Counted from the stretch's first letter, positions 8,622-28,780 are shown. The stretch: 32,000 nt of DNA from Clostridiales bacterium (GCA_004556155.1 SFIM01000005.1:5705-37704), one strand, 5' to 3'. Numbers and translations are program-made. The notes: generated by a model not told the origin, from the sequence alone.

Positions 8622-8698
8622 CTGGGTGTAGCGCAGCTTGGTAGCGTGCTTGAATGGGGTTCAAGAGGTCGAGAGTTCAAATCTCTCCACCCAGACCA
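8622..8698 (+). tRNA. tRNA-Pro (anticodon GGG)
   Basis: Hand-folded 77-nt cloverleaf. Acceptor CTGGGTG/CACCCAG with C1:G72 and A73-CCA. D arm GCGC-AGCTTGGTA-GCGT. Anticodon arm CTTGA-ATGGGGT-TCAAG (T33, GGG at 34-36, G37). T arm GAGAG-TTCAAAT-CTCTC. Confidence 0.9.
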
Positions 8699-18277: not shown

Positions 18278-19330
18278 ATGGCAATTATCGCCCCCGATAT
18301 CGGTATTGATCTGGGCACTTCAAATACACTGGTCTATGTAAAGCACAAGGGCGTGGTGCTTAACGAGCCTACGCTGATGGTAGTAACCGGCGGCCAGAAG
18401 AAAAGCGTAAAGGCCTTTGGCGAGGACGCGCGCCTGATGCTGGGCCGCACCACGGGTGAATATCAATCAGTTCGCCCGCTTGAGGACGGCGTGATCAAAG
18501 ATTACGATATGACCGAGTATATGCTGGAGTTCTTCATCCGCAAGGCCATTGGCATGTCTCGGCTTGTTCGCCCGCGCGGGCTGATTACCATCCCCAGCCG
18601 CGTCACGGCAATCGAACGCCGCGCCGTGCGTGAGGCTGCCGAGAATGCAGGAATCCGCAAGGGCGCGCTGCACCTGATTGAAAAGCCCTTTGCTGCGGCG
18701 CTGGGCTCCGGGCTGCCGGTGTTTGAGCCGCGCGGCAGCATGGTGGTGGATATCGGCGGCGGCACCACCGAGGTGGCGGTCATATCGCTGGGCGGTATCG
18801 TGGTATCGCGCTCCGTGCGCGTGGGCGGCATTCGCATGGATGCGGCGATTATCAATTTTATCAAGCGTGAATTTAACATGCTGATCGGCGACCGCACGGC
18901 CGAGGATGTAAAGTTTGACTTGGGTGCGGCTCTGCCCATGAACGATGTGCGCCGTGCATTTGTACGCGGCCGTGACCTGGTGACTAACCTACCGCAGACG
19001 GCGGAAATCACCTCTACCATGGTTTATGAGGCGCTCAAAGCGCCATGTCAGGCCATTCTGGCCGCCATCCAGTATGTGCTGGAGCGCACGCCGCCCGAGC
19101 TTGCAGGCGATGTGATGCGCAGCGGCATCCACCTGACCGGCGGCGGCGCGCTGCTGTGTGGCATGGATCGCTTTATCGCCACCGAGCTGGATATGCCTGT
19201 GCTGCTGGCTAAGGAGCCCATGGATTGCGCGGCGCTGGGCATTGGCCAGCTTGCTGAGGATTTGGAGCTATTGCAGCGCATGTGCCAGAGCGCCCCGCAG
19301 CGCGATGACGAGGAGGAAACCACCTTCTAA
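18278..19330 (+). CDS. mreB: Rod shape-determining protein MreB
   Basis: DIGIDLGTSNTLVY, VVDIGGGTTEVAVISLGG, GIHLTGGGALL actin-fold motifs. Confidence 0.95.
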   Translation: MAIIAPDIGIDLGTSNTLVYVKHKGVVLNEPTLMVVTGGQKKSVKAFGEDARLMLGRTTGEYQSVRPLEDGVIKDYDMTEYMLEFFIRKAIGMSRLVRPRGLITIPSRVTAIERRAVREAAENAGIRKGALHLIEKPFAAALGSGLPVFEPRGSMVVDIGGGTTEVAVISLGGIVVSRSVRVGGIRMDAAIINFIKREFNMLIGDRTAEDVKFDLGAALPMNDVRRAFVRGRDLVTNLPQTAEITSTMVYEALKAPCQAILAAIQYVLERTPPELAGDVMRSGIHLTGGGALLCGMDRFIATELDMPVLLAKEPMDCAALGIGQLAEDLELLQRMCQSAPQRDDEEETTF

Positions 19331-19356
19331 TTCTTTAGCATTTTCGGAGGAAACGC

Positions 19357-20667
19357 ATGCCCCTTAAATTGCCTCATAAAAAGAAAAAGGATAACGCCCC
19401 GCAGCAGGAAGCTGAAGCCACGGAGCAGCAAAGCGTAAAGCGCGGTGCCGGCAAAAAGAAGGATCATACCGAGGCCAAGCATCGCCTGCGCAACACGGCT
19501 TTTGCGCTGATTGTGGTGGTGCTGCTGGGCGTAATCGGCTGCATGATCGCATCGCAGTTTTTCCCGGAAATCTCGGTGCTGGATCTGCCGCGCCGCGTGG
19601 TCGCCAATGTGATGCGCCCCGTGGAGGAGGCTTTTTCCTCCGGCACGGGCTGGTTCTTTGATTATGTAAAGCGGCTGAAGCTGCGCAGCAATATCGAGTA
19701 TGAGTATGAAAAGCTCTATGAGCAGTATGACGATATGCTCAGCCAGGTTATGCGCGTGAACGAGCTGGAAAACCAGCTCAACGAGTATCAGGATCTGATG
19801 GACGAAATGCAGACCCACTCGCAGTTTGACGGCGTGCCCGCGCGCGTGATCGCCAGCGACAGCACCAACTATTTCTCCACCTTTACCATCAACGTCGGCA
19901 CCAAGCAGGGCATTCAGAACTATATGGCTGTGGTTAAGTCCGGCGGTCTGGTAGGGTATACCTACGATGTAACCGAGACCACCGCCAAGGTGCAGTCTAT
20001 CATCAGCAGCGATACCAGCATTTCCGCGCTGATTGAATCCACCCGCTACCAGGGCACCGTTAAAGGCACCCTGGGCGTAAATGGCGAGGCTATGTGCCGC
20101 ATGTATTACCTGCGCGATAACCACCTGCCCCGCCAGGGTGATACGGTGGTTACCTCGGGTGTTGGCATGGAGTTCCCCAAGGGCATTCCCATCGGCGTGG
20201 TGCGCGAGAGCACGCGTGGCATGGAGGAGGGCAAGTCCTATGTAGTCATCGAGCCGATTGTGGACTTTGAGCGCATCGAGCATGTAATCGTCTACCGCTA
20301 TACACCTTCCTATGCCGAGCAGGCGGAACAGCGCGATGGCAGCGACGGCCTGGTATCCTCCAGCCTGCCCACGGCGCGTCCTGTGCCTACCTTTACGTTG
20401 GATGGCATCGGCGACTTTAACATAAGCGATACGCCCACGCCCAATCCCAATCAGGATGCGCAGCAAACGCCGACCCCTGATGAAACGCCTGCGCCGGGCG
20501 AAACTACCTTGCAGCCCGGTCAGACGCAGACCCCGCGGCCCACGGGCAACCTGTCCTATCAGGATGTTCCCGGTACGCCCACGCCTGAGCCTACGCCCAC
20601 TCCCGAGCCCACGCCTTCGCCTACGCCCACCTTCTCGCTCAGCGATATGACCCAGGAGGCGGATTGA
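19357..20667 (+). CDS. mreC: Rod shape-determining protein MreC with Lys-rich N-terminal and Pro/Thr-rich C-terminal extensions
   Basis: TM helix FALIVVVLLGVIGCMIA, coiled-coil ENQLNEYQDL, MreC core VVTSGVGMEFPKGIPIGVV. GGAGG RBS 6 nt before the ATG. The tail ends ...PGTPTPEPTPTPEPTPSPTPT. Confidence 0.88.
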   Translation: MPLKLPHKKKKDNAPQQEAEATEQQSVKRGAGKKKDHTEAKHRLRNTAFALIVVVLLGVIGCMIASQFFPEISVLDLPRRVVANVMRPVEEAFSSGTGWFFDYVKRLKLRSNIEYEYEKLYEQYDDMLSQVMRVNELENQLNEYQDLMDEMQTHSQFDGVPARVIASDSTNYFSTFTINVGTKQGIQNYMAVVKSGGLVGYTYDVTETTAKVQSIISSDTSISALIESTRYQGTVKGTLGVNGEAMCRMYYLRDNHLPRQGDTVVTSGVGMEFPKGIPIGVVRESTRGMEEGKSYVVIEPIVDFERIEHVIVYRYTPSYAEQAEQRDGSDGLVSSSLPTARPVPTFTLDGIGDFNISDTPTPNPNQDAQQTPTPDETPAPGETTLQPGQTQTPRPTGNLSYQDVPGTPTPEPTPTPEPTPSPTPTFSLSDMTQEAD

Positions 20668-20668
20668 T

Positions 20669-21235
20669 ATGCGCAAGGTGCTCAAGGCGCTGCTGCTGAC
20701 GATCCTGGCCTATCTGTTTCAGGTGTGCGCCATGAATCAACTCAAAATCGGCGGCGTGGTTGCCAATCTTCTGGCGGTCAATATCGCCATATTGACCGTA
20801 TCCCTGGGCAAAAAATATGCCTTTGGTGCGTCCTGCGTCACCGGCATTCTGCTTGAGGTGATGACCTCAACTGTCGGCGGCTTTTATGCGGTGATCTATC
20901 CGGCGGTCAGCATGCTCTTTGCCCAGCTTTTCTCGGATATGAGCGATGAAAAGCGCGAAATACGCCGCAATCGCGAAAAGAACACCCGCGACGTCAACCC
21001 GCACATCCGCATTCCGCTGGACGCCATGTGCATCTCCGCCGGAATCGAAACCATTCTGCTTACCTATCTTACGCTGTCGGGCGCGGAGCTTTCCGTGCGC
21101 CTGATTGCCCGCGCGCTGCTGTCTGTGGTCTATACCGGCGCGCTGGCCGTAGTATTGATGCTGCCCGTGCGCGCATTCCTGCGCATGTACGGCGGGCGCG
21201 TAAAACGCGCTCTGGTTGAAGGAGAACAGGAATAA
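20669..21235 (+). CDS. mreD: Rod shape-determining protein MreD (polytopic membrane protein)
   Basis: Multi-TM hydrophobic 188-aa ORF that starts 1 nt after the mreC stop. The call rests on position between mreC and PBP2. Confidence 0.7.
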   Translation: MRKVLKALLLTILAYLFQVCAMNQLKIGGVVANLLAVNIAILTVSLGKKYAFGASCVTGILLEVMTSTVGGFYAVIYPAVSMLFAQLFSDMSDEKREIRRNREKNTRDVNPHIRIPLDAMCISAGIETILLTYLTLSGAELSVRLIARALLSVVYTGALAVVLMLPVRAFLRMYGGRVKRALVEGEQE

Positions 21236-21241
21236 ACAATC

Positions 21242-23755
21242 ATGAAGAAATCACACACCCTGCGCATTTTGCTGGCGCTGCTGGTCATCTTCGGCGCCTT
21301 CGCCTATATCGTTTACGGGCTTGCCCAGCTTCAGCTGGTCAAGGGCGAGGGCTACTCCGATTCCGCCGGCAGAAAGAGCATCAAAACCATCCGCACCACC
21401 GGCAAGCGCGGTATGATTACCGACGCCGATTCCGTCATCCTGGCTATGACGGAGGACGTTTATAACGTCACCTTTTATCGCGATGCTTCCAAGAGCAAAA
21501 AGGCCGATTATCTCAATTATACCAAGTCCATCATCGAGGCCATTCAAATCATCGAAAAGTACGGCGGCGAGCTGTGCGTGGATTTTGTAATCGGCCGCGA
21601 TGAAAACGGCATGTGGCAGTACCAGTTTGGCGACGGTATTTCCGAAGCTGCCTGGAACACCCGCAGCCAGCAGTGGCGCAGCAACCACTATATCACCGAG
21701 ACCAAATACGACGATCCCGAGGTCGCCTATCAATTCTTGTACGGCCGCTATCAGTTTGCGCAGCTGAATCAGGTTCCCGACGAGGAAACGGTGCTCAAGG
21801 TGATGGCCATCTACAATGAAATGCAGATGAACCTGTACAATTCTCTGCCTGTGGTCATCGCCAAGGACGTCAGCTACGCCACGGTATCGGAGATCGAAGG
21901 CCGCAGCATGATGCTGGATGGCTTTGCCATCGAGATCGGCTCCAAGCGCGTTTATCCGCGCGGCTCCCTGGCCTCGCAGGTCATCGGCTATGTCGGCCCC
22001 ATCTCTTCCTATGAAACCTATTACAGCGAGCTGGAGCCGCAGGGCTACAAGCTGACCGATACCATCGGCAAGGACGGCATCGAGGCCAGCATGGAAAGCT
22101 GGCTGACAGAGAACATCTCCTCCCGTTCCGGCACCCGCATTATGGAAAAGGACAGCAACGGCAAGCTGACCCGCGAGATTTCTTCTTCCGAGCCGCAGGA
22201 CGGCAACAACGTCAAGCTGACCATCATCGCCAGCTATCAGCAGGCTGCTGAGCGTGCCATTGAGGATAACGTCCGCACCGTGCGCTCCGATCAGGAATCC
22301 AAGATGGCCGAAGCTAACTGGCTGGAGACCAACAAGGAAAAGCTGAACGAGCGCGATTGGGACAAGTATCCGCTGCAATTAGCCGATACGGGCGTATTTC
22401 TGGTATTGGATGTTGACAATGGTAACGTGCTGGCCATGGCGCAGTATCCCACCTACGATCTGAACGCGCTGATCGCCGGCGGCGAGGAGGCTGCCTCCAT
22501 CCTGACCGACGAGCGCAACGTGATGATGAACTACGCCATCCAGCAGCGCGCCGAGCCTGGCTCCGTATTCAAAATGGTGACGGCGCTTGCCGCGCTGGTC
22601 AACAATAAAATCACCCCGATTACCACCATCAGCGATATGGGCCCCTATACAGCATATACCAAGAACAAAAGCGAAGCGCCCACCTGCTGGGCTAATAAAG
22701 CCGTTCGTAACAGCAGGCACAAGAACCTGACTATCATCGGCGGCCTTTCCAACTCCTGCAACTATTTCTTCTATGAGCTTGGACATCGCCTGTATGGCGA
22801 CAGCGGCAGTACGCTGCTGTATCAGTACTCGGTCGATATTGGCCTGACCAGCAAAACCGGCATCGATCTGCCCGGCGAAAAGCGCGGCATCGTGGGCAAC
22901 CAGACCATGCTGTACGATTCCACGGTTTCCCTGGATGAGCAGCGCACCTGGCAGCCCATGCTGGTGGCGGCCAAGGTGAAGCAGCATTTGCAGAATGTTG
23001 GCGCCAAATATGGCGTTTCCTATGATGAAACGCGCCTGAACAAGTGCGTGAAGCGCCTAATGGATATGGCTGTATCCACCGGTCAGGATAAGTGGGTTAG
23101 CTCCATTCAGCCCATTCTGATGGAAGAATTGAACATGACCCGCGATATCGTTATCCTGAGCGCCACGGTAAGCGATATCTTCATTTACCTGAACGATATC
23201 AAATGGGGCGGCAGCATGGAAATTCAGACCGCCATCGGACAGGGCATCACGATGGTTACGCCCGTCGCCATGTCCCGCTATATCGCGGCTCTTGCCAACG
23301 GCGGCGTCGTGTGGAACGTAAACATCATTGATTCCATCATTTCGCCTGAGGGCGAGGTTATCTCCAAGCGCAAGGCCAGCCGCTTCAACACCCTGGAGGG
23401 CGTGGCGGAATATCTGCCCTACATCAAGGAAGGTATGAAGGGCGTGGTAGACGATTCCGGTACTGCTGGCAGACAGTTTAATGGCTGGAAATATGAAAAA
23501 CAGATTTGGGCTAAAACCGGTACGTCTCAGGTGACGATCGGTAAGATCAAGCTGGATCTGGAGAACAACGCATGGTTCTGCGCGCTGACGCCCTATGAGC
23601 AAGCCGAAATCGCCATCGTGTGCTTTATCCCGAATGGCTACGCCGGCGGCCGAGCGGCAACGGCTGTAAAGGAATTTATCACCTGGTGGATGGACGAGCA
23701 AACCAAGGATACCGGCGAGATGGCTGTTGTATCGGGCAACGAATTGATGCCCTAA
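21242..23755 (+). CDS. mrdA: Penicillin-binding protein 2 (class B transpeptidase, elongasome)
   Basis: N-terminal TM anchor. Transpeptidase motifs SVFK (EPGSVFKMVTA), SNS (LSNSCNYFF) and KTGT (AKTGTSQ). It lies between mreD and rodA. Confidence 0.9.
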   Translation: MKKSHTLRILLALLVIFGAFAYIVYGLAQLQLVKGEGYSDSAGRKSIKTIRTTGKRGMITDADSVILAMTEDVYNVTFYRDASKSKKADYLNYTKSIIEAIQIIEKYGGELCVDFVIGRDENGMWQYQFGDGISEAAWNTRSQQWRSNHYITETKYDDPEVAYQFLYGRYQFAQLNQVPDEETVLKVMAIYNEMQMNLYNSLPVVIAKDVSYATVSEIEGRSMMLDGFAIEIGSKRVYPRGSLASQVIGYVGPISSYETYYSELEPQGYKLTDTIGKDGIEASMESWLTENISSRSGTRIMEKDSNGKLTREISSSEPQDGNNVKLTIIASYQQAAERAIEDNVRTVRSDQESKMAEANWLETNKEKLNERDWDKYPLQLADTGVFLVLDVDNGNVLAMAQYPTYDLNALIAGGEEAASILTDERNVMMNYAIQQRAEPGSVFKMVTALAALVNNKITPITTISDMGPYTAYTKNKSEAPTCWANKAVRNSRHKNLTIIGGLSNSCNYFFYELGHRLYGDSGSTLLYQYSVDIGLTSKTGIDLPGEKRGIVGNQTMLYDSTVSLDEQRTWQPMLVAAKVKQHLQNVGAKYGVSYDETRLNKCVKRLMDMAVSTGQDKWVSSIQPILMEELNMTRDIVILSATVSDIFIYLNDIKWGGSMEIQTAIGQGITMVTPVAMSRYIAALANGGVVWNVNIIDSIISPEGEVISKRKASRFNTLEGVAEYLPYIKEGMKGVVDDSGTAGRQFNGWKYEKQIWAKTGTSQVTIGKIKLDLENNAWFCALTPYEQAEIAIVCFIPNGYAGGRAATAVKEFITWWMDEQTKDTGEMAVVSGNELMP

Positions 23756-23773
23756 CGCTATAAAGGAAAGAAA

Positions 23774-24562
23774 ATGGGAAAAATCATAGCGCTTGCCGCC
23801 GGAAAAGGCGGCACCGGAAAAACGCTGCTGACGGCGGCGCTGGGGGAAAGGCTGGCCGCGCGCGGAGAGCAGGTGTGCCTGCTGGACGCCTGCGCCGGCC
23901 TGCGCGGATTGGATCTTAGCCTGGGACTCCAGGATCAGATGGTCTTTGACTGGCTGGATTTATCGCGTGAGGACTGCGCCATGGAGCAGGCGCTGCTGCG
24001 CGGCGTGGGGGAAGGGCAGCCATATCTTCTGGCTGCGCCGCAGGATCTGCTGCCGGAGGATGTCGATATTGCCCAGCTTCAAAAGCTGCTGACCCGACTG
24101 CAAAAGCGCTTTGATTATGTGCTGATTGACACGCCCAGCGGCATCGGCAGCCTGACGCGCAGCCTGTGCGCCATGGCGGATGAAACGGTGCTGATTACCA
24201 CGATGGACGACGCCTCGCAGCGCGGCACAGAGCGCCTTTCCGCCCTGCTGCGCGAGGCGCAGCCCGAGGCCATCATCAGCCTGATTATCAATCGGCTGCT
24301 GCCTGCCAAACGCAGACAGGATGACCCGGAGGCTGCTGCGGCGGCGCTGTCCGGCTACCTGGATTTACCACTCTACGCTGCGATACGCTTAGACGATACC
24401 ATCGGCAGCGTTGACGCGCGCAAAGCCGCCGCCCAGGCTGCGCGCAGTCCGCAATGGCTGACCGCGCTGGAGCAGGCGGCAGATCGACTTTGCGGCAGCG
24501 ATACGCCGCTTAAGCAAGATCGCGTAAGGAGGAAACTGTGGCTTTCTCGCATAAAAGGATGA
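23774..24562 (+). CDS. minD: MinD-like ParA/MinD-family ATPase (divergent)
   Basis: Deviant Walker A AAGKGGTGKT, LLDACAGLRGLDLSLGL (compare MinD DADIGLRNLD), Walker B YVLIDTPSG, and a basic/amphipathic C-terminus RRKLWLSRIKG. No minC or minE flanks it. Confidence 0.7.
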   Translation: MGKIIALAAGKGGTGKTLLTAALGERLAARGEQVCLLDACAGLRGLDLSLGLQDQMVFDWLDLSREDCAMEQALLRGVGEGQPYLLAAPQDLLPEDVDIAQLQKLLTRLQKRFDYVLIDTPSGIGSLTRSLCAMADETVLITTMDDASQRGTERLSALLREAQPEAIISLIINRLLPAKRRQDDPEAAAAALSGYLDLPLYAAIRLDDTIGSVDARKAAAQAARSPQWLTALEQAADRLCGSDTPLKQDRVRRKLWLSRIKG

Positions 24563-25821
24563 GCTTTCACCAAGGCTCGGGCGCGATAACCTCCACGGAG
24601 GATCGCCGTACGCGGGCGCATTTGGATATCCCGCTGCTGATTATCACCTACGCGCTGGCCGTTTTCGGCGTGTACTGCATCGCCATTGCCACCTTTAATC
24701 CCGATAAGGGCACGGATTTGTCGGTACTGAATTACATTCTTAATTCCAGCTCCGCCTCTTGGCAGGCCATTTTCTGCCTTGTTTCGCCCATCGTTCTGGG
24801 CTTTCTGGTGGCCATTCCATATGAGCTGCTGCGCATTCAGGGCCGGCTGGTTTACTATGGCATTGTAGGCCTGCTGATTCTGGCGCTGTTTTCTCAGGCC
24901 ATTTCGGGCGTAACGGCGTGGATTCCCATCGGTAAGGGTCGTACCATTCAGCCGGCCGAGTTTATCAAAATCGGCATCATCCTGATGATGGCGCGCAGCC
25001 TGTCCAACACCGATAAGCCCTTTGGCACCATGCGCAATGCGGCGTATAACCTGGGCATCTTCCTGCTGCCTGCTGGTTTGACGCTGCTGCAGGGTGAGTT
25101 GGGCTCCGTGCTGGTCATGTGCGTAATCTTCTATGTGATGCTCTACTTTGCCGATACCGAGACGTGGGTGCTGATCACCATTCTGGTACTGGCTGTGGTA
25201 GGCATCGGCGCAATCCTGGGGTATATGATGGTTAGCGGTTCGGAAAGCTACCGTCTCAAGCGCATTCTTTCCTTCCTGGATCCGCAGGCCTATTACAACA
25301 GCGCAGGCTATCAGATTCTCAATTCCCAATTGGCCATTGGCTCGGGCGGCAAGACGGGCATCGGCACCTTTGTGGTGGGTTCGCTGAGCCAGCTGAACTA
25401 CGTGCCCGAGGACTGGACGGACTTTATTTTTTCCGCTGTGGGCGAAGCCTTCGGATTTGTCGGCTGCATCGGTGTGATCATTGCATATCTTTTGCTGATG
25501 CTGCGCATGCTGTATTTGGCACACTTCACCATGGATCGCTTTGGCAGGCTGATTATCGTGGGGGTTATGGCCATGTTCTTTTCTCACGTAATCGAGAATA
25601 TCGGCATGACCATCGGCGTGCTGCCCATCACCGGCATCCCGCTGCCGTTTATCAGCTACGGCGGCTCCAACTTTGTTACCAACATGGCGGGCATCGGCCT
25701 GGTGCTGAATGTGGTCAAGAATCGTTCCAGCGCGACGGCAATCAACACGCCGCTTATGCTGCGCAATCAGCGCGGTTCCTGGTGGCGGCGCGGTAAGCAT
25801 GCCAAACAGAGCACCCTGTAA
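24538..25821 (+). CDS. rodA: SEDS-family peptidoglycan polymerase RodA
   Basis: The GTG at 24538 is 5 nt after AAGGAGG (24526-24532) and overlaps minD-like by 25 nt. Motifs: QPAEFIKI, PEDWTDFIFSAVGEAFGFVG, GIPLPFISYGGSN. Confidence 0.9.
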   Translation: MAFSHKRMSFHQGSGAITSTEDRRTRAHLDIPLLIITYALAVFGVYCIAIATFNPDKGTDLSVLNYILNSSSASWQAIFCLVSPIVLGFLVAIPYELLRIQGRLVYYGIVGLLILALFSQAISGVTAWIPIGKGRTIQPAEFIKIGIILMMARSLSNTDKPFGTMRNAAYNLGIFLLPAGLTLLQGELGSVLVMCVIFYVMLYFADTETWVLITILVLAVVGIGAILGYMMVSGSESYRLKRILSFLDPQAYYNSAGYQILNSQLAIGSGGKTGIGTFVVGSLSQLNYVPEDWTDFIFSAVGEAFGFVGCIGVIIAYLLLMLRMLYLAHFTMDRFGRLIIVGVMAMFFSHVIENIGMTIGVLPITGIPLPFISYGGSNFVTNMAGIGLVLNVVKNRSSATAINTPLMLRNQRGSWWRRGKHAKQSTL

Positions 25822-25850
25822 AAGGGGAAATCCTTTCTGAAAAATAGATC

Positions 25851-25899
25851 TCCAACTATTCGCAAAAGGCATCTTTTACGAATAGTTGGATTACTTTTT
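25851..25899 (+). terminator. Strong hairpin / rho-independent terminator after rodA; both arms are copies of the CTTTTRCGAATAGTTG repeat
   Basis: TCCAACTATTCGCAAAAG (25851-25868), loop GCAT, CTTTTACGAATAGTTGGA (25873-25890). 17 of 18 positions pair, and TTACTTTTT follows. Confidence 0.8.
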
Positions 25900-26210
25900 G
25901 GGTGTTTTAAAGGGGGTGGAGTGCTTGCGCTGATGTAGCGTCCTTGCCTGGCACAATGCACGGCGAAACGTAATGGTTGTGCTGCTTTATGATGGATATC
26001 GTGCTGTGTTCCGGTAAAGCTTTTTAATTTGTATTAAACCCCCAATGATCCTTATTCTTGTTTGCCTAAACCATCTATCTGCTTAGTTAACGTTATATAT
26101 CGTGGAGGTTTGCTTTTTTACTTCAATTCAAGTGCAACAGCTTCCTGGATGGCCCTGGGCTATCAATGTGCTGTTCGAGCTGCGCTTGCTTTTCGGCTTT
26201 CTCTATCCAT

Positions 26211-26230
26211 TTCCATACAGTTCCATACAG
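26211..26230. repeat. Perfect 10-bp tandem duplication TTCCATACAG x2
   Basis: TTCCATACAG at 26211-26220 and again at 26221-26230, flanked by CCAT on both sides. Confidence 0.95.
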
Positions 26231-26253
26231 CCATTTTCCCTGCCGCTTGTGGG

Positions 26254-26282
26254 TTGACAATCGTAATGGATCGTAGTATCAT
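26254..26282 (+). promoter_or_regulatory. Candidate sigma-70-type promoter facing the recombinase gene
   Basis: TTGACA (26254-26259), a 17-nt spacer, then TATCAT (26277-26282). It ends 2 nt before the right repeat copy. Confidence 0.5.
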
Positions 26283-26284
26283 GT

Positions 26285-26300
26285 CTTTTGCGAATAGTTG
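26285..26300. repeat. Right copy of the 16-bp inverted repeat (partner at 25853-25868)
   Basis: CTTTTGCGAATAGTTG is the exact reverse complement of CAACTATTCGCAAAAG (25853-25868). It also matches 25873-25888 as a direct repeat at 15/16. Confidence 0.95.
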
Positions 26301-26316
26301 AATGGAGGAAAATGCT

Positions 26317-27420
26317 GTGCCTGCACCGGATTATCATCAAAGCATCGAAATTTCCCGCAATCGCCGCATCCGCGAATTACAGGCAGAGCTGCCCGACGTT
26401 TGCGCGGATTTTTTTAGCGCCATATCGCAAACTACCAGTTCCCTCACCCGGCTGGCTTATGCCTATGATCTTCGGTTATTCTTTCAGTATCTATGCGCCG
26501 AGCAGCCGCAGTTTGCCGATACGGATATGCGCCTGATCACCACCGAGCAGATCGGCCAGATCACAGCGCGCCAGCTACGCGGTTTTCAGGATTATCTGAC
26601 GCAGTATATCAAGCCTGCTGATGATGAAGGCGGCGAGTTGATTGTCAATAATCACGAGTTGGGCATTATGCGCAAGCTCTGCGCACTGCGCTCGTTTTTT
26701 GAATACCTATTCAAAAATGAGCTGATTCCCGGCAATGTCGCCACCCTTGTCCCCCTGCCTAAGCGCCACAGCAAACCCATTCTGTATCTGGAGCCCAACG
26801 AGGTGGAGCGGCTGTTGACAATTGCAGACCAGGGCGAGGGACTTTCCAAGCATCAGCAAAGCTATCAAAAGATGACCCGCAAGCGCGACGTCGCCATCCT
26901 CTCGCTGTTTCTTGGCACTGGCATCCGCGTCAGTGAGCTGGTAGGCATTGATTTGGAGGACCTGGATTTCACCATGAATGGTTTTCTGGTCACGCGCAAG
27001 GGCGGCAACCAGACGATCCTGTATTTCCCCGAAAGCGTGGCGGATGCGCTCAAGGCATATTTACAGGAGCGCATGGCCATCGAGCCATTGCCTGGCCATG
27101 AAAAAGCGCTTTTTTTGTCCATGCAGCGGCGCAGGATCACGCAGCGCGCCGTCGAAAACCTGGTCAAAAAATATGCTTCGCTGGCCGCGCCGCTGAAAAA
27201 AAAGATCAGCCCGCATAAGCTGCGCAGCACCTTTGGCACCAGTTTGTACCGTGAGACTGGCGATATTTACCTGGTTGCGGATGTTCTTGGCCATGCGGAC
27301 GTGAACACCACCAAGCGTCATTACGCCTCAATGAGCGATCAGCGCAAGCGCGAAGCTGTGAAAAGCGTTGTGCTGCCTGTGATAGAAAACGAAAGCAAAG
27401 AGGAGCCTGAAGAATCATGA
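26317..27420 (+). CDS. Tyrosine site-specific recombinase, Xer/phage-integrase family (long, XerS-like architecture)
   Basis: Core-binding domain LTRLAYAYDLRLFFQYL. Catalytic residues in GTGIRVSEL (R), VTRKGG (K), SPHKLRSTF (HxxR) and LGHADVNTTKRHY (H...Y). The GTG at 26317 is 8 nt after GGAGG (26304-26308). The track ATG at 26302 has no RBS. Confidence 0.88.
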   Translation: MPAPDYHQSIEISRNRRIRELQAELPDVCADFFSAISQTTSSLTRLAYAYDLRLFFQYLCAEQPQFADTDMRLITTEQIGQITARQLRGFQDYLTQYIKPADDEGGELIVNNHELGIMRKLCALRSFFEYLFKNELIPGNVATLVPLPKRHSKPILYLEPNEVERLLTIADQGEGLSKHQQSYQKMTRKRDVAILSLFLGTGIRVSELVGIDLEDLDFTMNGFLVTRKGGNQTILYFPESVADALKAYLQERMAIEPLPGHEKALFLSMQRRRITQRAVENLVKKYASLAAPLKKKISPHKLRSTFGTSLYRETGDIYLVADVLGHADVNTTKRHYASMSDQRKREAVKSVVLPVIENESKEEPEES

Positions 27421-27605
27421 AAATGTGCGTTCTATATGATCGAGAATGCATCGACTGCGGCGAATGCGATCAGTGTGAGCTGGATCCAACTAAGCGCTGC
27501 AATAACTGCATGAAATGCGTATCCGGCGACGCTGAATACCGCGCTATTCTGATTGATGAAGTTGTCAAACCGGCCCAGGAGCCCAAACGCAAGCCGCAAA
27601 AATAA
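27417..27605 (+). CDS. Small (62 aa) eight-cysteine protein with a basic tail, function unknown
   Basis: ATGA overlap with the recombinase stop (27417-27420). GAGGAG sits 10 nt upstream. Cys at residues 4, 11, 14, 17, 20, 28, 31 and 34 (CIDCGECDQC ... CNNCMKC). Tail KPAQEPKRKPQK. Confidence 0.55.
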   Translation: MKMCVLYDRECIDCGECDQCELDPTKRCNNCMKCVSGDAEYRAILIDEVVKPAQEPKRKPQK

Positions 27606-27630: not shown

Positions 27631-27659
27631 TTGCCAAACGTTTGTTTGCATGTTATAAT
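27631..27659 (+). promoter_or_regulatory. Candidate lexA promoter
   Basis: TTGCCA (27631-27636), a 17-nt spacer, then TATAAT (27654-27659). Confidence 0.6.
27635..27648. promoter_or_regulatory. Candidate LexA operator 2 (CAAAC-N4-GTTTG), inside the lexA promoter spacer
   Basis: CAAACGTTTGTTTG lies between the -35 and -10 hexamers. It contains the perfect palindrome CAAACGTTTG. Confidence 0.5.
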
Positions 27660-27687
27660 ATGAATAGCGAGTAAATGAGGTGAGCGA

Positions 27688-28323
27688 ATGGCGGCAACAA
27701 GACGCGCACGTGGCGATACGCAGCAACGCATTTTGGAATTTATCGAAAGCGAAGTGGCTTCTAAAGGCTATCCCCCTTCGGTTCGCGAGATTGGAGACGC
27801 CGTTGGGCTGAAATCCACCTCCACGGTTCACGGCCATCTCCGGCGGCTGGAAGCACGCGGATTGCTGCGTCGTGACGCTATGAAGCCACGTGCCATGGAG
27901 GTGCGCACGGAGCGCACCGCGCCTGAAGCATCGCCTGAAGCATCGGACGCTTTCCGCATGGTGCCGATTGTGGGCAACGTTGCTGCGGGTTCCCCCATCC
28001 TGGCGGAGGAATATGTAGAGGATCAAATTCCTCTCCCCGAGGTTATGCTGGGCGATGGCGAGCACTTTATCCTGCGTGTGCATGGCGATAGTATGATTAA
28101 CGCCGGCATCATGGATGGCGATTATGTAGTGGTTCGTCAGCAGAACACCGCCGTAAATGGCGAGATTATCGTTGCTTTGATCGACGACAACGCTACCGTC
28201 AAGCGCTTCTATCGAGAAAACGGCCGTTTCCGTCTACAACCGGAAAACCCAGCCATGGCACCTATTTATGCACGCGCGATCGATATCGCAGGCAAGGTTG
28301 TATCGGTCTATCGTCTATATTGA
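27688..28323 (+). CDS. lexA: SOS transcriptional repressor LexA
   Basis: RILEFIESEVASKGYPPSVREIGDAVGLKSTSTVHGHLRRLEARGLLRRD (wHTH), cleavage site VAAG, catalytic GDSM and VKRF. Confidence 0.93.
   Translation: MAATRRARGDTQQRILEFIESEVASKGYPPSVREIGDAVGLKSTSTVHGHLRRLEARGLLRRDAMKPRAMEVRTERTAPEASPEASDAFRMVPIVGNVAAGSPILAEEYVEDQIPLPEVMLGDGEHFILRVHGDSMINAGIMDGDYVVVRQQNTAVNGEIIVALIDDNATVKRFYRENGRFRLQPENPAMAPIYARAIDIAGKVVSVYRLY
27922..27945 (+). repeat. Perfect in-frame 12-bp tandem duplication (PEAS-PEAS) in the lexA hinge
   Basis: CCTGAAGCATCG at 27922-27933 and again at 27934-27945. Confidence 0.95.
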
Positions 28324-28443: not shown

Positions 28444-28449
28444 TTATGT

Positions 28450-28780
28450 AAATGAGCGCAGACTGTAAGCCGAGTTCTGTCGTGAATAGTCATCTATCTA
28501 CGCGACCTGTCGCCAGGCCGCTCAAGCGATTTCGAAGACGGGCGAGCCACCCATAGCCTTCATCAATCTTGCACCGGATGGGGTTTACATGACGGACGAG
28601 TTGCCAGGCCGCCGGTGCGCTCTTACCGCACCTTTCCACCCTTACCGGCATTGCTGCCGGCGGTATATCTCTGTTGCACTTGCCTTGGAGTCGCCTCCAC
28701 CAGCCGTTAACTGGCATCCTGCTCTGTGGTGCTCGGACTTTCCTCATGCCTTGCGGCACGCGACTATTCATCTGCCTCAA
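28450..28780 (-). ncRNA. rnpB: RNase P RNA (M1 RNA), bacterial type
   Basis: The minus strand contains universal P4 GAGGAAAGTCCGAGC (complement of 28733-28747), GTGCAACAGAGA, GGTAAGGGTGAAAGGTGCGGTAAGAGCGCACC-like CR-II/III segments, and the 3' element ACGACAGAACTCGGCTTACAG. P2 is GAATAGTC/GACTATTC and P1 is GAGGCAGA/TCTGCGCTC. The ends are approximate, within about 5 nt. Confidence 0.85.

Follow-up and report, generated by a model that had tools for sequence, protein, structure and literature searches.

A putative dif-like module with an extra promoter-proximal arm beside the gene of a single Xer-type recombinase in Clostridia

Single-recombinase Xer systems have been described in streptococci and lactococci (XerS), in epsilon-proteobacteria (XerH) and in archaea (XerA), and also in Legionellales. 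The recombinases XerS (356 amino acids) and XerH (354-362 amino acids) differ in size from XerC/D (298 amino acids), and a dif site adjoining the recombinase gene is a possible hallmark of such systems (PMC5357621). In streptococci and lactococci, the site difSL lies beside the gene of its single recombinase of about 360 amino acids at the GC-skew switch; its arms end in ...CGAAAA / TTTTC..., it is placed between or on the promoter of the gene, and autoregulation has been proposed (PMC1914069, PMC5357621). The XerH systems of Helicobacter and Campylobacter likewise comprise a single recombinase and a near-palindromic site, difH, near its gene, with a centre of 6-10 bp. No description of a single-recombinase Xer system in Clostridia was found in the literature searched. 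The locus described here lies in a stretch of 32,000 nucleotides from a Clostridiales bacterium (GCA_004556155.1 SFIM01000005.1:5705-37704; hereafter the window), in which three copies of a short repeat precede the gene of a tyrosine recombinase. An earlier note on this DNA had taken the repeats for a candidate invertible promoter switch or recombinase target site. They are interpreted here as real and functional parts of a dif-like module that lies at the replication terminus, serves a single recombinase resembling XerS and XerH, and has an extra promoter-proximal arm; the probability of this interpretation is put at roughly 0.6. Its parts, in window coordinates, are the following.

25842-25899, + strand: hairpin and T-run; inverted repeat of 27 nt with a 4-nt loop, made of the left and middle repeat copies
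25854-25887, no strand assigned: candidate dif-like core site of 34 bp; left arm AACTATTCGCAAAA (25854-25867), centre GGCATC (25868-25873), right arm TTTTACGAATAGTT (25874-25887)
25888-26253, no strand assigned: AT-rich spacer with no conserved content
26254-26282, + strand: putative recombinase promoter; TTGACA, 17 nt, TATCAT, matching the consensus at 11 of 12 positions
26285-26300, + strand: third arm, the proposed operator; a single arm of left-arm type in right-arm orientation
26317-27420, + strand: gene of the Xer-type tyrosine recombinase (367 amino acids); ribosome-binding site (RBS) GGAGG at 26304-26308

Three copies of CTTTTGCGAATAGTTG, and no more, are present in the window. Positions 25853-25868 (CAACTATTCGCAAAAG) and 26285-26300 are perfectly reverse-complementary, a match that extends to 19/20 over 20 nt, and the middle copy at 25873-25888 differs from the others by one base. 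A scan of the 32 kb that allowed up to three mismatches returned three copies, compared with a mean of 0.3 in shuffled sequences, none of which (0/100) reached three. The perfect 16-bp inverted repeat, the additional copy with one mismatch and the negligible likelihood of a chance match, all of which the earlier note had asserted, were thus borne out. Its description of the enclosed DNA also held: the segment is AT-rich (GC content per 100-nt window is 35-45% across 25950-26150 and 53-62% in the flanks), it has no convincing open reading frame (ORF), containing only ORFs of 45-79 amino acids in DNA that is not alignable with relatives, and TTGACA-17-TATCAT was found at its right end. One full core site is present in the window, and a weight matrix derived from 76 homologous arms found no further site of at least 10 bits there.

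Relatives of the locus were gathered by exact-protein look-ups, a scan of species-representative genomes, a metagenome scan and a protein search. The species-representative scan yielded 80 loci with 49-64% protein identity, from Christensenellales, Candidatus Limiplasma, Blautia, Fusicatenibacter, Enterocloster and others; the related loci and assemblies compared are referred to by L-numbers (L001, L070 and so on). About 60 species-level clostridial lineages, among them most of the 80 species-level genomes and also metagenome loci, have a palindrome corresponding to the core site upstream of their recombinase gene, and among relatives it usually lies 25-100 bp from the start codon. Alignment of 45 distinct homologous sites revealed a common 14-6-14 layout, with arms AACTATTCG[C/T]nAAA that are conserved at positions 1-9 and 12-14 and a 6-bp centre that varies freely (GGCATC, CCACAG, CTTGTC, GAATAC and others).

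Position 10 of the arms is informative about what is conserved. It is C on the left in 35 of the 45 sites and T-equivalent on the right in 36, and the bases of the two arms at this position are complementary in just 16% of sites. What looked like a one-base mismatch in the middle copy is thus the form that right arms conserve and no random mutation, and the absence of compensation between the arms implies that the DNA sequence is selected, not base pairing. In one clade both arms are altered in concert (AGACTTCGCAAAA...TTTTACGAAGTCT), which is expected if one protein reads both. Judged from these alignments, the palindrome is a protein-binding site rather than an RNA hairpin, and its 14-6-14 layout matches the core sites of tyrosine recombinases, with two arms in inverted orientation, a short asymmetric centre between them and the recombinase gene alongside. 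Its dif-like identity is considered highly probable.

Two further observations concern the palindrome. Position 10 of the right arm (25878) is polymorphic within the species, being mostly A, with G in L006 and L118, in which the palindrome is perfect. In two loci the palindrome was found without a recombinase gene in the locus (L111, 4272-4305 in 6.4 kb; L116, 299-332 in 3.9 kb), and in L111 it sits between convergent genes.

The protein fits such a module. Its most likely start is the GTG at 26317 rather than the ATG at 26302 given by the ORF listing, homologues beginning with M-P-x-x-D-Y-H. In the assembly collection, 871 blocks contain the exact 367-residue protein, and the protein search returned more than 8000 relatives at E < 1e-30. 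Pfam recognizes a Phage_integrase domain (4.7e-32) and, weakly, a SAM-like N-terminal domain; the catalytic set R-K-H-R-H-Y (R209, K233, H305, R308, H331 and Y341, numbered from the ATG at 26302) is invariant in 16 homologues. The closest solved structures by sequence and by predicted fold are XerA, XerD and XerH; the structure prediction was of moderate quality (predicted local distance difference test, pLDDT, 72; predicted template modelling score, pTM, 0.50) and was used solely to establish a Xer-like fold. The best-scoring NCBIfam model is XerS, followed by XerA, XerC and XerD. With its two domains, its complete catalytic set and its length of 367 residues, the protein is, by sequence, a Xer-type tyrosine recombinase.

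The arms of the core site (TTCGCAAAA) resemble those quoted for difSL (TTTCCGAAAA) and difH (AGTTATGAAAA) (PMC5357621). The match to either system is incomplete. The arms of difSL are unequal and its centre is 11 bp long, whereas here near-symmetric 14-bp arms flank a 6-bp centre; in addition, the present system is found in Clostridia, is often linked to lexA and has, in some clades, an extra single arm that is not described for difSL in the literature searched. XerH is among the top fold matches, yet it is only about 20% identical in sequence and comes from another phylum, and no extra promoter arm is described for difH.

The position of the locus in the chromosome was examined through GC skew. 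Among the 61 species-level loci with at least 2.5 kb on each side of the gene, skew is positive upstream and negative downstream in 43 (+/+ in 10, -/- in 7 and -/+ in 1); a random locus would show the +/- switch in well under 1% of genomes. Averaged over the 80 loci in 500-bp bins, skew is +0.045 to +0.079 from 3.5 kb upstream to the gene start and -0.03 to -0.06 from 1 kb downstream of it, and the change falls at the start of the recombinase gene. In the window, cumulative skew is maximal at 25-28 kb, and long ORFs all lie on the + strand up to 28323 and all on the - strand thereafter. In a 21-kb stretch from the same species, 11 + genes meet 11 - genes at the locus, and skew is negative or about zero from the end of lexA onward, for approximately 9 kb. 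On the evidence of local skew, as distinct from a whole-chromosome curve, the site and gene are located where the replichores meet, at the terminus.

The flanks show two other features. A run of negative skew interrupts the positive left flank (window 19000-23000; L126 3000-7000), covering PBP2 and the genes just upstream of it. G-rich octamers are polarised toward the site from both sides in the flanks of L008-L087 (CGGGGGAG 25:0, GGGGAGGG 21:2, ATGGGGGA 45:3); these might include an FtsK-guiding motif, but they are confounded with skew and coding strand and so were not used as evidence.

The third arm is confined to particular clades, most relatives keeping the recombinase and the palindrome without it. 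Clade A comprises the window and relatives with recombinases 71-100% identical, with rodA or an RNase H gene upstream. In this clade the palindrome is 300-540 bp from the gene, and one lone arm, CTTTTGCGAATAGTT, directly follows the -10 box at a distance of 12-31 nt from the start codon. In the window it begins 3 nt past the -10 box and so covers the expected transcription start; the -35 box, the promoter spacing and the position of the promoter relative to the arm are conserved in L088, L090 and L094. All clade-A loci scored share the same 15-nt arm, which bears G where right arms usually bear A, so that it is always of left-arm type despite its right-arm orientation. The spacer, in contrast, cannot be aligned between relatives with recombinases of 73-88% identity, among which it is 272 to 408 nt long; over the clade as a whole it spans 270-500 bp. 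That the arm is invariant while the spacer has diverged beyond alignment indicates selection on the arm.

Within the species the spacer is 95% identical, with scattered single-nucleotide polymorphisms and a 10-bp insertion or deletion. The element TTCCATACAG (26211-26230) is a tandem duplicate in the window and in the L001, L002, L005, L006 and L119 assemblies, and is single-copy in L003, L004, L007, L118, L120 and L122-L124 of the same species.

An extra arm was also found outside clade A. Clade B (seven loci, six lineages, 61-64% identity) has at +208 a 14-nt arm that is part of the coding region and is translated as S-F-A-N-S (L008 4167-4180; L010, L099, L101, L113, L114 and L115 at +208). 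It is invariant in the six lineages, within surrounding DNA that is 48-58% identical and in which most neighbouring synonymous sites differ, and in five of these six its last base agrees with the palindrome arms of the same lineage. L070 and L073 independently have an extra arm of opposite orientation, which lies across the -35 and spacer part of a TGnTATACT promoter. Where no extra arm is present, a consensus promoter ends 2-14 nt before the full site (12/12 in L048 and L045; also L064, L042, L031, L041 and L036), or the -35 box falls within the site centre (L074, L079, L085) or abuts the right arm (L011, L013, L016, L035, L108). The theme that these promoter predictions appear to share is contact between a recombinase-binding arm and the recombinase promoter.

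It is known that XerS binds isolated half-sites (PMC2965235), and autoregulation of xerS through difSL was proposed in 2007 (PMC1914069). Given these precedents and the recurring promoter contact, the third copy is most likely an autoregulatory operator, as predicted here, and not a recombination partner. At the core site, two recombinase monomers would bind the arms and exchange strands across the 6-bp centre, and chromosome dimers would be resolved in this way during division, the function that XerS performs at difSL and XerH performs at difH. A recombinase monomer on the third arm, between the -10 box and the RBS, would block transcription of its own gene. Auxiliary operators reinforce repression by looping, and by analogy the block might be tightened if the bound monomer bridged to the two recombinase molecules at the core site, 412 bp further upstream. 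Autoregulation through the third arm is given about an even chance. The first alternative raised in the earlier note, a single-recombinase module of the XerS/difSL or XerH/difH kind beside its own site, is accordingly favoured by site anatomy, terminus position and the Xer-type protein, and the cautious term 'recombinase target site' was correct.

Several points weigh against this interpretation or limit its evidence. The score of the XerS model, 194.7 bits, is below its curated cut-off of 267 (NF003462), so the protein is XerS-like and no XerS orthologue; it is not XerS proper. When canonical dif sequences (B. subtilis dif, E. coli dif and difSL) were scanned over the 32-kb window, their best matches were no better than those in shuffled sequences, a result that as genome-wide evidence extends to the window only. 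The terminus evidence is not fully independent, since GC skew is correlated with gene orientation, and the promoters discussed here are consensus matches only. The clade-B arm, 208 nt into the gene, fits looping or a roadblock and not simple promoter occlusion. In L011, L013, L018 and L019, in which the palindrome is distant, no extra arm was detected, not even a weaker one of at least 7 bits; the third arm is therefore not essential.

Among the alternatives, the one that survives best retains the dif-like core but makes the third arm an accessory site that controls recombination through synapsis, resolution selectivity or a topological filter. The model for such an arrangement is TnpI of Tn4430 and Tn5401, whose internal resolution site, just upstream of the gene, has two inverted core motifs and extra single accessory copies. 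That site also holds the recombinase promoter, which TnpI represses; it serves transposon cointegrate resolution, and its motifs lie within about 120 bp. The present locus differs in being at a chromosomal terminus and in having its extra arm 280-530 bp away. An accessory role would account for the agreement of the clade-A and clade-B arms in orientation and in that 280-530-bp distance when their positions relative to the start codon differ (-12 to -31 versus +208), and for the left-arm type of the arm in every case. It does not account for L070 and L073, in which the arm has the opposite orientation and again lies over the promoter, or for most lineages, which have no extra arm; in lineages without it, the core site itself overlaps the promoter, an indication that promoter contact is the common theme. 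An accessory site is thus considered unlikely.

The third arm could also be a functionless remnant, if a small element had inserted by Xer-type recombination into the centre of an ancestral promoter-proximal site and left a full hybrid site on its left and a half-site on its right. The layout of full site, segment and half-site in direct orientation is that expected of integration, and the full site is 25-100 bp from the gene in most relatives, as against a 270-500-bp AT-rich spacer in the clade of the window. Retained from such an event, though, the arm would be of right-arm type, and it is of left-arm type (G). It has moreover stayed invariant in clade A while the spacer decayed, implying selection, and in clade B it is within an intact coding region. 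The spacer (25891-26253) had no blastn match in phages or plasmids. These points weaken the reading as an integration scar, which is given a low probability.

A slim probability is likewise assigned to explanations in which the arms serve something other than the recombinase: as operators of another protein, such as LexA or the cysteine-rich microprotein encoded downstream, or solely as RNA, with a terminator hairpin and long-range pairing in the 5' untranslated region. The lexA and microprotein genes are often neighbours, and the hairpin folds well as RNA (minimum free energy -26.6 kcal/mol, z = -4.3). Against these possibilities, the 14-6-14 layout with its variable, asymmetric centre is that of a tyrosine-recombinase core site, the site tracks the recombinase gene and not lexA, and the box at the lexA promoter (AAAC-N4-GTTT) differs and is absent from the recombinase promoter. 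The uncompensated difference at position 10 indicates that base pairing is not selected, and a -35-like TTGAC that immediately follows the right arm in clade B (L008, L113) suggests that a transcript bearing the coding-region arm would exclude the palindrome.

The hairpin may nevertheless have a local role. In clade A the palindrome comes after a gene, not after a promoter, and a T-run follows the right arm in seven of the eight distinct clade-A tails listed. The hairpin that the earlier note had called the rodA terminator, with the T-run after it, is present in the sequence, and a role as terminator is plausible: in the lineage of the window the core site probably also serves rodA as an intrinsic terminator. 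Searches of the segment for other RNAs were negative. At the Rfam gathering threshold, applied to the whole window, no structured RNA was found at the segment and the spacer had no match; at E <= 10 over 25750-26400, only chance microRNA-like matches to the hairpin were obtained; and no tRNA or tmRNA was detected in the segment. Control of the recombinase by LexA was also considered and rejected, as GAAC-N4-GTTC has no match near the promoter and the lexA promoter box is different.

The reading preferred in the earlier note, an invertible promoter switch, was the least well supported. The locus has the features of an inverton, such as fimS with FimB/FimE or the invertible promoters of Bacteroides and C. 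difficile: a perfect 16-bp inverted repeat around a segment, an outward promoter (a consensus match only) just inside the right repeat and an adjoining tyrosine recombinase gene; an extra arm is also found 280-530 bp from the palindrome in two clades. The inverted repeat adds no information, however, because the core site is palindromic and any third arm would be inverted relative to one of its arms; one 'repeat' is in fact half of that site. The other is a half-site with no partner arm beside it, and the would-be crossover bases differ from lineage to lineage (ATG in the window but TTA in L094). The segment had the same orientation in 21 of 21 independent assemblies of the species, from different samples (a comparison in which rare flipping could have escaped notice), and every other clade-A and clade-B locus showed one orientation. 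A metagenome scan with TTCGYAAAAGATGCCTTTTGCGAA, the reverse complement of the normal palindrome, returned 21 loci, and wherever the recombinase gene was included the centre had the same orientation relative to it. Models of tyrosine-type DNA invertases scored 43.9 and 33.5 bits, far under their cut-offs of 222 and 221, and the recombinase is of Xer type, conserved at the terminus across a bacterial class. The earlier note had held that a switch would be refuted if the flipped orientation were never seen at high depth, or if the trio of repeats were absent from relatives that keep the recombinase; none of the 21 assemblies was flipped and most such relatives keep the palindrome alone, so the switch fails on these grounds and retains only a very remote likelihood.

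The genes around the module, all on the + strand, are, in order, those for PBP2, a MinD-like ATPase and RodA, followed by the intergenic region, the tyrosine recombinase, a cysteine-rich protein of 62 amino acids and LexA. The remaining features of the window that were annotated are as follows.

27417-27605, + strand: gene of the 62-residue cysteine-rich protein; its ATG overlaps the recombinase stop codon (ATGA), and it has no Pfam or NCBIfam match
27631-28323, + strand: lexA (TIGR00498, 237.7 bits), with its own predicted promoter TTGCCA-17-TATAAT at 27631-27659
27636-27647: palindromic box AAACGTTTGTTT (AAAC-N4-GTTT), overlapping the lexA promoter
28449-28779, - strand: RNase P RNA, class A (267 bits)
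8622-8698, + strand: tRNA-Pro(GGG)

The box AAACGTTTGTTT, a variant of the Firmicutes GAAC-N4-GTTC, is the probable LexA box in this lineage. Several arrangements place the recombinase gene beside lexA, 43 of the 80 related genomes having one of them; this linkage would tie a putative dimer-resolution gene to the gene of the SOS repressor. Homologues of the cysteine-rich protein adjoin lexA in many relatives (L015 5079-5237, L028 3434-3583 and others), usually on the opposite strand and divergent; in the clade of the window the gene is co-directional. The divergent pairing suggests that this is an SOS-controlled gene, and the protein may not belong to the recombinase module.

Upstream, the PBP2-MinD-RodA operon (21242-25821) is co-directional with the recombinase gene in the window, and in L013, L018, L019, L020 and L032 it is found downstream of lexA, on the opposite strand and convergent. 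These differing arrangements imply an evolutionary inversion at the terminus that changed the orientation of the rod-shape operon and the recombinase-lexA block relative to one another. An RNase H gene is often directly upstream of the palindrome in relatives (L008 3132-3614, L029 2365-2865, L094 4085-4570); this gene may have been the original neighbour, with the rodA operon taking its place in the lineage of the window.

Taken more broadly, the comparison can be accommodated by a dimer-resolution system with a single recombinase that is spread across the clostridia (Christensenellales, Lachnospiraceae and relatives) and is often linked to lexA. In this system the 14-6-14 site would double as operator; where site and promoter drifted apart, selection would repeatedly have installed an extra arm, on the promoter or in the coding region, closing a repression loop with the core site and reusing the synapse for regulation. 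This generalisation is tentative, its odds being put somewhat below even.

For screens of invertons the locus is a caution, as a palindromic core site and one extra arm mimic an inverted repeat with an enclosed promoter and an adjoining recombinase. The promoter arm also opens to direct testing the suggestion, made in 2007, that the gene of a single Xer recombinase is controlled by that recombinase via its site. If the interpretation is correct, it would name the dimer-resolution site and enzyme of a large share of gut Firmicutes, would provide a precise marker of the replication terminus in metagenome-assembled genomes and would predict an integration hotspot for elements that exploit Xer sites.

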